Source: a virus
Reading direction: 5' to 3' (one strand)
DNA: 33,641 bases
UHGV virus genome: UHGV-0275541
In this document: positions 788 through 5,052 of the stretch, one piece after another
How the letters are laid out: each line of letters opens with the position of its first letter
How positions within the stretch are numbered: position 1 is the stretch's first letter
Program-made: the position numbers and the translations under genes
The notes under the pieces: generated by a model
Database searches by the model: none
The model's input: the letters and a program-made list of their open reading frames with translations, nothing else
Told to the model about the DNA's origin: nothing

Positions 788-1326
788 TTTACCCAACAAA
801 TACAGGCAAAAGCGGGGAACACCTTCGTCTCACCACGCTGGAAAGTGTCTGGATTCAGGGAAAACTGCGCATGTGGGGGCGCTGGTCGTATATTGGCGGC
901 GGTAAGACGGGAAATATGTTCAATCAGTTGCTGGCCTCTAAAAAGCTGACAAAAACCGCGATCAATGAAGCCCTGCGTAGACTCAGGGAGTCAGGGATTG
1001 ATAAACCAGAGCTGGAAGCATTCTTGCGAGAGATGATCGCTGGCAGACAGAAGAGCTGGTTGTCTCACTGTACTGATGCAGAGGCGTTACGCATTGATGG
1101 GGTGATAAGTAAAGCGCTTGCACGTTATCCTGGATTGATTGATATCCTGCGGCAAAGGTACGAAGGGCGGGGGATGAGTAAACGCAAAATGGCTGAATTG
1201 TTGAATGAGGTGCACCCGGAATGGTGTTTTAGTACATGCGAAAAGCGAATTGCTAATTGGTTGGCTGTTGCTGAATATGCGCTATACATCCCTATGCGAG
1301 AATCGTTTGCTCAAAAAATGGCTTGA
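784..1326 (+). CDS. putative late-gene antitermination protein Q-like
   Basis: 180 aa starting MIYPTNTGKS (ATG 784); position after nin genes and directly before a strong intrinsic terminator; WGRWSY segment resembles the WGAW region of Q-family antiterminators (from memory). The upstream extension to 664 overlaps ybcO and was not used. Confidence 0.55.
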   Translation: MIYPTNTGKSGEHLRLTTLESVWIQGKLRMWGRWSYIGGGKTGNMFNQLLASKKLTKTAINEALRRLRESGIDKPELEAFLREMIAGRQKSWLSHCTDAEALRIDGVISKALARYPGLIDILRQRYEGRGMSKRKMAELLNEVHPEWCFSTCEKRIANWLAVAEYALYIPMRESFAQKMA

Positions 1327-1408
1327 TTTTTTACGCATAAACTGTTTCAATCCAGCTACGCTTCGCAAAGCTGTACCGCGAGGCGAATAGCAGACATGGA
1401 CACCTGAA

Positions 1409-1436
1409 AGAACCCGCTTTATGCGGGTTTTTTTAT
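1409..1436 (+). terminator. intrinsic terminator (tR'-like) downstream of Q-like gene
   Basis: Stem CCCGC(1413-1417)/GCGGG(1423-1427), loop TTTAT, followed by T8 (1428-1435). Confidence 0.8.
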
Positions 1437-2952: not shown

Positions 2953-3133
2953 ATATGTGTGTGATTATTTGTAATCAATCACGAGTAATAGAAATTTACA
3001 CATATATTTACTAATATTGACACTATGTTTATTGAAATAGTGTTTGCCCTCATTAATATCAATAATCGGTTCCGAGGAGATGACAGGGAAATAATGCATA
3101 TATCGGTTGTTTTATTTTTTCCGAGGAACCGTT

Positions 3134-3206
3134 GCCGATTTAACTTAGCAGACAAAGCAACTGACTTGTAATCACCGGGTCGCCAGTTCGATTCCGGTAA
3201 TCGGCA
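3134..3206 (+). tRNA. degenerate tRNA-like element (anticodon loop CTTGTAA suggests UGU/Thr); possibly a pseudo-tRNA
   Basis: 7-bp acceptor helix GCCGATT/AATCGGC, U8-A9, T-loop TTCGATT, but 2 mismatches in anticodon stem, 1 in T-stem, and D-loop lacks GG. Hand fold only. Confidence 0.4.
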
Positions 3207-3212
3207 CTATAT

Positions 3213-3287
<75 letters not shown>

Positions 3288-3381
3288 GAGAAACAAGCCT
3301 TATTGTATCGTGGCACTGGCGTATTTTTATTACGTGGGAGCAGGTTGTTTCGAAAAAGCATTCTGTTCTCTGGCTATGATT

Positions 3382-3414
3382 TGAGGCCAGGTTAGCCTCA
3401 GTGCTGATTTTTTT
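3382..3414 (+). terminator. terminator-like hairpin downstream of tRNAs
   Basis: TGAGGC/GCCTCA stem with 7-nt loop, then T-run 3407-3414 after a 5-nt spacer. Confidence 0.45.
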
Positions 3415-3644
3415 ACGGCAGCAGAATGGTGCATTGCTGGTGGAGATTTTGTATTTCCTGGCAGGGTCGGTGATGTATCATTCTGGTGTTGTAAATAACA
3501 CCATCGGGGCGCTCCTCAGGGCGAGGGTGGTTAAAAGAGTCGGTTTAGCGGGAAACCACAGTATTCATACAGGACGGAATACTTCGGGAGGCACCCGACG
3601 CCTCGATTTTATTACAATTAAAAAATTCATTCCTTGCATTGACC

Positions 3645-3671
3645 AACCGCCGTATCTGGCGGTTTTTTTTA
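3645..3671 (+). terminator. intrinsic terminator
   Basis: ACCGCC(3646-3651)/GGCGGT(3658-3663), loop GTATCT, T8 run. Confidence 0.75.
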
Positions 3672-3803
3672 TTCAGAATTTCGTTTCTTTATGGTTCGCT
3701 GCGGCGGGCCTTTTTCATATCTGCGCTTTACTCAACGTGTATTGAATCTGAATACATCACATAAAAGACATCGGCGGGTGCCTTTGACGGGGTGTTTTAT
3801 TAC

Positions 3804-3826
3804 GGGCCGCTGGTGGCCCTTTTTTA
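3804..3826 (+). terminator. intrinsic terminator immediately upstream of lysis cassette RBS
   Basis: GGGCC(3804-3808)/GGCCC(3815-3819), loop GCTGGT, T6; followed by AGGAG RBS of the first lysis gene. Confidence 0.7.
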
Positions 3827-3844
3827 TTTACAGGAGAAAAAAGT

Positions 3845-4237
3845 ATGTCTGAACCCTTATCCGGTTCCGGCACGGCTGCGGCGCTCGGTGGGGCGACGGT
3901 GTACGGGCTGTTTACCGGAACGGATTTCGGGATTGTGTTTGGTGCATTCGCAGGGGCGCTGTTTGTGGCCACGATACCACAGCAGATTTCTGTCTGGCGT
4001 GTGGCAGCGCATTTTCTGGTGTCGTTCATTGTTGGCGTGCTGGGGGCGGATGCGATGGCGTCTTACCTGGTTGAAAAACTGAATCTCCACAGCACATCTC
4101 TCGACGCGCTTTGCGCGGTACTGGTATCGGTGGTGTCGGTGAAGATTCTCTCATTCATCCACCAGCAGGATATCGCATCACTGGTGTCCGGTCTGTTCTC
4201 CCGCCTGCGGGGTGGAGGAGGCGGCAATGTTAAGTAA
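3845..4237 (+). CDS. putative holin (multi-TM membrane protein, first gene of lysis cassette)
   Basis: 130 aa; AGGAG RBS 8 nt upstream; Gly/Ala-rich hydrophobic segments consistent with 3-4 TM helices; sits directly upstream of the endolysin. Confidence 0.55.
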   Translation: MSEPLSGSGTAAALGGATVYGLFTGTDFGIVFGAFAGALFVATIPQQISVWRVAAHFLVSFIVGVLGADAMASYLVEKLNLHSTSLDALCAVLVSVVSVKILSFIHQQDIASLVSGLFSRLRGGGGGNVK

Positions 4238-4506: not shown

Positions 4507-5052
4507 ATGAAGTCGAAAGATGAAATTTTTGACGAAATTCTGGGAAAAGAGGGCGGTTACGTCAATCACCCGGATGATAAAGGTGGTCCGACTAAATGGG
4601 GCATCACTGAAAAAGTTGCCCGTGCACACGGTTATCAGGGCGATATGCGTGACCTGACGCGTGGGCAGGCGCTGGAAATACTCGAGGCGGACTACTGGTA
4701 CGGACCACGATTCGACCAGGTTGAGGACCTGTCTCCTGATATTGCCGCAGAGTTGTGCGATACGGGCGTGAACATGGGGCCAACTGTGGCGTCCAGAATG
4801 CTTCAGCGCTGGCTGAACGTTTTCAACCTGCGCGGGAAACTCTATCCGGATATGGATGCTGATGGACGCATCGGGCCGCGTACTCTTAATGCATTACGGG
4901 CATATCTGAAAAATCGCAGCAGGGATGGTGAACTGGTACTGGTGAAAGCCCTGAACTGTACGCAGGGCGAGCGTTATCTGGAGCTGGCAGAGAAACGCGA
5001 GGCCAATGAGTCGTTTGTCTATGGCTGGATGAAAGAGCGCGTGGTGGTTTAA
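4507..5052 (+). CDS. endolysin, glycoside hydrolase family 108 N-domain with C-terminal peptidoglycan-binding domain
   Basis: 181 aa from ATG 4507 (GAAGG RBS); N-terminal motif EGGYVNHPDDKGGPTKWGIT is the GH108 signature as I recall it; C-terminal half resembles a PG-binding module. Confidence 0.8.
   Translation: MKSKDEIFDEILGKEGGYVNHPDDKGGPTKWGITEKVARAHGYQGDMRDLTRGQALEILEADYWYGPRFDQVEDLSPDIAAELCDTGVNMGPTVASRMLQRWLNVFNLRGKLYPDMDADGRIGPRTLNALRAYLKNRSRDGELVLVKALNCTQGERYLELAEKREANESFVYGWMKERVVV

Follow-up and report, generated by a model that had tools for sequence, protein, structure and literature searches.

The late region around positions 3288-3844

The window, which is the whole stretch of 33,641 nucleotides of the virus genome UHGV-0275541 analysed here, is the late region of a lambdoid (P27/Rac-like) Escherichia coli prophage. 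DUF1367, YbcO, Q, a small ORF, an N6/N4 methylase and two tRNA genes are found upstream of the slot studied in this work (3288-3844), and two holins (Phage_holin_8 and Phage_holin_3_7) and a GH108 endolysin are found downstream of it. The features flanking the slot are listed below; the pR'/tR'-like unit, its promoter-like site, the leader hairpin and the holin ribosome-binding site were read from the sequence.

664-1326: Q (DUF1133/Phage_antitermQ)
1322-1435, plus strand: pR'/tR'-like unit, directly 3' of Q
1322-1350, plus strand: late promoter-like site TTGATT-17-TTCAAT
1413-1435, plus strand: strong terminator of the pR'/tR'-like unit, with U7, which folds at -14.3 kcal/mol (z = -4.0)
3032-3059, plus strand: promoter-like site TTGAAA-16-TAATAT ahead of the tRNAs (a pattern match only, with 9 of 12 matches in a consensus scan)
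3067-3130, plus strand: CGGTTCC/GGAACCG leader hairpin, just ahead of the first tRNA
3134-3206, plus strand: tRNA-like gene of Thr type, anticodon loop UGU (Rfam tRNA model, 45.9 bits)
3213-3287, plus strand: tRNA-Gly(UCC) with encoded CCA (ARAGORN; Rfam, 65.6 bits)
3833-3836, plus strand: holin ribosome-binding site GGAG
3845-4237, plus strand: Phage_holin_8 holin, first lysis gene, downstream of the slot (Pfam, E = 9.9e-22)

Positions 1300-1388 show 91% conservation among the prophages in which Q abuts the tRNAs. The pR'/tR'-like unit would yield a short RNA of about 70 nt, comparable to lambda 6S RNA or StxS. The region between its terminator and the tRNAs (1435-2952) contains a 106-codon ORF and the N6/N4 DNA methylase gene, as L23 and L24 of phiP27; the ORF shows weak winged-helix matches, under the Pfam cut-offs, and is closed by a terminator-like hairpin at 1742-1765.

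The promoter-like site at 3032-3059, whose equivalent AT-rich region shows TTGACG in relatives, is a candidate start of the tRNA-RNA transcription unit. At the position of the leader hairpin, one related locus (L007) shows GGTTCT paired with AGAACC, a compensatory change which suggests that the tRNA leader is transcribed and processed. The tRNA-like gene at 3134-3206 has mismatched D and anticodon stems according to the Rfam tRNA model, and was not called by ARAGORN. Relatives show an intact tRNA-Thr(UGU) at this place, and the copy in the window is probably a decaying tRNA gene.

The original prediction located the slot at the position which toxin genes occupy in Shiga toxin-converting lambdoid phages. 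The location is the same in phiP27, whose stx2e genes lie between the tRNAs and the same holin as in the window.

Coding potential and conserved structure of the slot

The slot contains a 114-codon GTG ORF (3401-3745), and in some genomes hypothetical proteins are annotated over the homologous DNA, on either strand. That this ORF or one of these hypothetical proteins represents a real small protein-coding gene is nevertheless hardly credible, given how the region varies: the ORF is open in only six of 59 homologues, pairwise indels among the slot homologues include 388 whose length is not a multiple of three and 11 whose length is, and the longest open frame changes frame and strand from homologue to homologue. 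Variation shows no codon periodicity, with 56, 61, and 56 variable sites out of 93 at the first, second, and third codon position, respectively, no Pfam family matches any ORF of the slot, and PGAP leaves the region unannotated in most genomes. The coding potential of all the slot ORFs was rejected on these grounds, as the frame is not kept and neither periodicity nor a Pfam match is found. The claim of the original prediction that the slot has no credible ORF holds, and the conserved coding gene that it had named as evidence against itself was looked for in the slot and not found.

Structure was analysed on an alignment of 59 homologues (57 distinct, 67-97% identical). The RNAalifold consensus shows 74 base pairs, 17 of them with compensatory changes. 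These 74 pairs are paired in 98.8% of the cells, in relation to 40-50% when the partners are slid by 1-3 columns. Changes on both sides affect 17 pairs, against 11.4 ± 1.5 in shuffles (none of 500 reached 17) and 1-5 in the slid controls, and the covariation score is 0.215, against 0.05-0.085 in the slid controls. Pairing is 98.8% when read on the plus strand and 84.7% on the minus strand, and G-U pairs make up 14.3% of the cells; therefore, the structure fits the plus strand and not the minus strand. Since the viral homologues were gathered with a motif inside the 3' domain (D3), the invariance of the D3 hairpin is partly by construction; the covariation in the other D3 helices and in the two upstream domains (D1 and D2) is unaffected by this sampling.

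According to these comparisons, tRNA-Gly is directly followed by a predicted structured RNA of about 385 nt, conserved and non-coding, at positions 3288-3671. Its parts, and the features between its 3' end and the holin, are:

3312-3405, plus strand: D1, a branched domain with closing helix GGCACUG (3312-3318) paired with CAGUGCU (3399-3405)
3412-3495, plus strand: D2, a long imperfect hairpin of 31 pairs (MFE -40.1 kcal/mol, z = -7.5)
3506-3604, plus strand: D3, multi-branch, with core hairpin CGGGAGGCACCCG; a relative of STnc100/EcOnc27
3605-3644, plus strand: A/U-rich linker, without pairs in the consensus fold and differing between subfamilies
3645-3671, plus strand: terminator T1, 3' end of the RNA, 8-bp stem and U8 (scan; -11.7 kcal/mol, z = -3.5)
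3693-3715, plus strand: terminator T2, 7-bp stem and U5 (scan; -12.0 kcal/mol), conserved in 13 sequence variants
3745-3803, plus strand: segment equivalent to the DUF3927 3' untranslated end of relatives (L004 alignment; BLAST blocks 3745 to 3900)
3804-3826, plus strand: terminator T3, GGGCCGCUGGUGGCCC and U6 (scan), which ends 18 nt before the holin start codon

The closing helix of D1 is paired in 100% of the sequences and nearly invariant, and is followed by GA and a U7 run (3408-3414). Compensatory changes are found in the inner helices of D1, in two of the three pairs of helix 2 and three of the four pairs of helix 3. D1 with its U7 run is possibly a leaky terminator of the tRNA unit. 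The main helix of D2 contains 27 pairs, five with compensatory and 14 with one-sided changes, and is paired in 98.8% of the cells; D2 is a candidate processing or stabilising element. Neither D1 nor D2 has an Rfam match. The A/U-rich linker is a candidate Hfq-binding and seed region.

Domain D3 and the STnc100/EcOnc27 small RNAs

In the Rfam scan proposed in the original prediction, only the two tRNAs of the window exceed the gathering thresholds, and STnc100 stays below threshold and passed a reciprocal test. The STnc100 model (RF02076) matches positions 3478-3674 over its full length (model positions 1-206) with 22.1 bits and E = 0.005, and its gathering score of 47 bits is reached neither by D3 nor by any related locus. 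At the gathering thresholds, no small-RNA family was found over the element in 16 related loci. Weak Rfam hits to mir-983, Plastid-ycf2, STnc240, JA04, TarB, isrK, and others were discarded as terminator-like or chance matches, and only STnc100 survived the reciprocal test.

For this test, a covariance model built from D3 alone (R1) was used. R1 matches genuine STnc100 of two Stx2 phages (E = 3.7e-4 and 8.7e-4), as well as an STnc100-like copy in the EPEC prophage PP5 (E = 8.5e-8). These matches retain the closing helix, although its bases differ. In the window, this helix pairs 3506-3511 with 3599-3604, immediately 3' of the hairpin CGGGAGGCACCCG at 3584-3598, and covaries among the homologues, with CG in 28 sequences and UA in 28. 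By model matches in both directions, D3 is a diverged relative of STnc100/EcOnc27. The suggestion of the original prediction that the slot may encode small RNAs is well supported on comparative grounds by this 3' domain, as well as by the conserved, covarying and strand-specific structure.

In the Stx2 phages (L116 and L117), STnc100 is located just after stx2B and before the holin, on the late strand. EcOnc27/sRNA103, which overlaps the STnc100 annotation in part, binds Hfq and was seen by northern blot (PMC12711010, PMC7873438); its Hfq binding and stable transcript were reported from Hfq-CRAC and northern blot (PMC7873438). Furthermore, the placement of Hfq-binding small RNAs in the interval from the late promoter to the lysis genes recurs in lambdoid prophages, and is found in at least eight of those of Sakai (PMC7873438).

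The RNA of the window resembles STnc100 in lying in the same slot, between Q with the late promoter and the holin, and on the same strand of the late transcript. Both show the core hairpin CGGGAGGCACCCG in a multi-branch domain closed by a long-range helix, followed by an A/U-rich tail and a U-rich intrinsic terminator, which in the window is T1 with its 8-bp stem and U8. However, D3 scores 22.1 bits against the 47 bits of the gathering threshold, and the sequences of its closing helix and branches differ. Unlike STnc100, the window RNA shows no promoter directly upstream by consensus scan, a position occupied by the D2 hairpin, and D3 is preceded by D1 and D2 and fused to tRNA genes, whereas STnc100 follows stx2B. 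In L117, AsxR (4708-4760, minus strand) is convergent with the adjoining STnc100. In contrast to the EcOnc27/AsxR and EcOnc06/AgvB dyads, the window shows no convergent AsxR-type partner, and AsxR and AgvB gave no match in it at E ≤ 10. An antisense partner or a bidirectional terminator was also rejected, there being neither an AsxR/AgvB match nor a terminator-like site on the minus strand.

PasD1 and PasD2 of EPEC E2348/69 are likewise prophage small RNAs encoded on the plus strand between Q/DUF3927 and the holin. PasD1 scores 37.7 bits against the STnc100 model, below threshold, and a shared ancestry of STnc100 and PasD has been proposed (bioRxiv 10.64898/2026.05.13.724894). However, neither PasD RNA shows BLAST similarity to the window, and R1 misses both at E ≤ 1. 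Among the EPEC PasD, PasA, and PasC loci, no sequence similarity was found except for the one D3-like copy in prophage PP5. PasD1 also differs in having a TTGACT-17-TATTAA promoter immediately upstream, of a kind not seen in the window slot, and the mode of expression here may differ from that of STnc100 relatives such as PasD1, as no promoter is seen upstream. Other classes of RNA considered for the slot (put-like antitermination RNA, retron ncRNA, omega RNA, and intron) were rejected, with no partner genes nearby, no Rfam support and a Q system present.

The comparisons support the assignment of the RNA to the STnc100/EcOnc27 type of prophage late-region small RNAs, to which it would add a 5' extension that is linked to tRNAs and was not described before. 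This assignment would extend the pattern of Hfq-type small RNAs between late promoter and lysis genes beyond Stx phages, to Rac/P27-like prophages. About 4% of complete E. coli genomes carry these, among them EAEC 042 (element at NC_017626.1, 1549826-1550210) and derivatives of E. coli W, such as W/KO11FL (NC_017660.1, 3367230-3367616). The same assignment would connect the core of STnc100 with tRNA genes and with D1 and D2, two covarying domains absent from Rfam; genome annotation based on Rfam currently misses the RNA at 3288-3671. The locus offers a non-toxigenic setting in which to study the role of the RNA found beside stx2, and a means of testing whether cassette terminators shield lysogens from leaky holin expression.

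Distribution, terminators and proposed expression of the slot

According to BLAST, at least 80% of positions 3288-3680 are present in 226 of 5426 complete E. coli genomes (about 4%), and a motif scan of IMG/VR gave 104 stretches; the element is found in about 100 viral contigs. A species-level genome scan for spread beyond Escherichia, with an exact 25-nt D2 motif that would miss divergent copies, found it only in E. ruysiae. The tRNAs and the following ~385 nt travel as one block (3133-3674 in the window), always with the RNA after tRNA-Gly and between Q and holin, beside different types of Q and different holin cassettes. Among 97 loci, 65 show all three domains, 13 show D2 and D3, 10 show D2 alone and eight show D3 alone. 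D1-D2 also occur with a short alternative 3' part: in L118 (3190-3290) and L119 (3095-3185), an unrelated, unstructured segment of about 75 nt replaces D3, and the same type of terminator is kept. The 5' part of the block looks like a constant scaffold, on which the 3' parts are exchanged. Since D1, D2, and D3 occur separately in other prophages, they may be separate functional units and not one RNA. D1 and D2 are absent from the Stx phage loci examined, the EPEC loci and phiP27.

A scan of 3288-3844 for terminator-like sites gave six plus-strand hits at five distinct sites, against 0.9 ± 1.1 in shuffles, and none on the minus strand. T1, T2, and T3 all match the anatomy of intrinsic terminators, a G+C-rich hairpin followed by a U-tract, and all are conserved in relatives. 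The stem of T1 is kept and its loop is variable across homologues, T3 is kept in 45 variants, which lie ahead of either of two holin types, and the changes of T2 and T3 in relatives preserve pairing. Of the three hairpin terminators originally proposed, those at 3645-3671 and 3804-3826 are canonical, but the hairpin at 3382-3414 is not the conserved fold. The U7 run at 3408-3414 lies 8 nt beyond the hairpin then proposed (3383-3399), the comparative data favour the pairing of GGCU (3372-3375) with AGCC (3394-3397) inside the branched domain D1, and the sole helix of D1 that abuts the U7 is the closing helix. A further terminator, at 3693-3715, had been overlooked.

In L004 and L119, a TerB-DUF3927 cassette comes after T2 with its flanks, and positions 3745-3844 correspond to the DUF3927 3' untranslated end, T3 and the holin ribosome-binding site, which places the junction of the absent cassette near 3745. 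In phiP27, the 3745-3844 block comes after stx2e and L27. On these alignments, T2 and T3 are the boundary terminators of a TerB-DUF3927 cassette which is carried by relatives and missing here. To regard the slot as an empty toxin slot is misleading, because the small-RNA gene of the stx2 flank and the boundary terminators of TerB-DUF3927 are kept. The arrangement resembles that of lambdoid morons with Q read-through (lambda pR'-tR', stx, bor, lom) in having cargo with its own terminators within the late operon, downstream of the Q gene and a pR'/tR'-like unit, with cassettes present or absent between relatives. It differs in that the cargo in the window would be RNA, not protein, and two of the three terminators belong to an absent cassette.

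As to expression, a consensus scan, which weak promoters could escape, gave no promoter-like site in 3288-3844. An internal sigma-70 promoter ahead of D2 or D3 was also discarded, as the scan found none and the manual candidates were poor and unconserved. Because the slot shows no promoter-like site, the RNA at 3288-3671 would most likely share a transcript with the two tRNA genes before it, started in the tRNA promoter region at 3032-3059. Processing of the tRNA could then free it as a 3' trailer of about 385 nt, or cleavage near D2 could yield shorter RNAs. The RNA of 3'ETS-leuZ type offers a parallel, in that the window RNA starts at 3288, directly after the tRNA CCA, with no promoter detected between them, and ends in an intrinsic terminator. 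However, 3'ETS-leuZ is far shorter and less structured. D3 with the A/U-rich linker and the terminator resembles a base-pairing small RNA of the Hfq type, and could act in trans, dependent on Hfq, through the linker. T1 is expected to end the RNA, and T1-T3 should stop the presumably constitutive transcription from the tRNA/RNA promoter before the holin in the lysogen; in lytic growth, Q-modified polymerase from the pR'-like promoter after Q should read through T1-T3.

Taken together with the alignments, the slot is probably non-coding cargo of the late operon, that is, a structured RNA with an STnc100-like D3 which is ended by T1, and T2 and T3 would bound the absent cassette. Several points count against this explanation: the D1 helix with the U7 run could stop most of the tRNA transcripts ahead of D2 and D3, the STnc100 score of 22.1 bits is far under the gathering score, no promoter of the PasD1 kind is seen, and the three domains are also found apart. 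The multi-terminator barrier of the original prediction, which would keep the lysis genes dependent on Q, is plausible, and reasonable because all the terminators face the direction of late transcription and there is a Q gene upstream, together with a pR'/tR'-like unit; nevertheless, a simpler explanation is that each of them closes an individual cassette at its 3' end. In its strict form, with no RNA product and with selection acting solely on a terminator stack that silences the lysis genes without Q, the barrier would account for five distinct plus-strand sites where 0.9 hits are expected, for their absence from the minus strand and for the conservation of T2 and T3. We consider it very unlikely, as D2, D3, and the inner helices of D1, which contain most of the pairs that are conserved and covary, do not form terminator hairpins and have no U-tracts after them, and D3 is homologous to an expressed small RNA (PMC7873438).

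The structures themselves allow two further readings, which differ from the probable one in what the RNA would do. Lying on the late-transcript strand just upstream of the holin, they might act in cis on the late operon and control the lysis genes, for example if D2 were an RNase III site or if D1-D3 served transcript stability or antitermination. D2 is a long, near-perfect duplex (-40.1 kcal/mol) of a type expected to be cleaved by RNase III, an enzyme that cuts such duplexes in the lambda N-leader and in sib processing. A control of this kind is distinctly unlikely at a block which has its own strong terminator at its end, is found with unrelated holin cassettes, and in relatives is separated from the holin by 200-700 bp, including the TerB and DUF3927 genes; antitermination is, moreover, already accounted for by the Q gene with its pR'/tR'-like unit. 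Alternatively, D1-D2-D3 might be an undescribed kind of large structured RNA of about 385 nt, multi-domain and tRNA-linked, with a constant 5' scaffold, which would act on host RNA metabolism or defence without base-pairing, for example as a protein-binding RNA or a decoy on a host RNA processing or defence system. The covariation of all three domains, their joint presence in 65 of the 97 loci, the constant fusion of the element to tRNA genes and the lack of an Rfam match for D1 and D2 would all suit such an RNA. However, the domains are exchanged independently (D1-D2 with the short 3' part, D2 alone, D3 alone), and the small RNA to which D3 is homologous, one that binds Hfq, exists alone. We regard this reading as unlikely; if it were true, STnc100 itself would be one module of a larger system.

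Several related loci show further arrangements. In the LT-IIb phage SerU-LTIIb (L001, KU052038.1), the block of tRNA, tRNA, structured RNA and holin is found twice in tandem (1122-2424 and 3028-4127); its copies have diverged, being 86 and 77% identical to the window, and the toxin genes lie after the lysis genes, outside the slot. Matches to D2-D3 of about 68% identity include 36 on plasmid records of 77-175 kb, for example NZ_CP051656.1 (97457-97725), and these records may be phage-plasmids bearing a distant copy of the RNA. Finally, the viral contig L030 shows matches to isrK and the C4 antisense RNA (a1/b1 targets) at 665-863, above the Rfam thresholds and upstream of the tRNA-RNA block.
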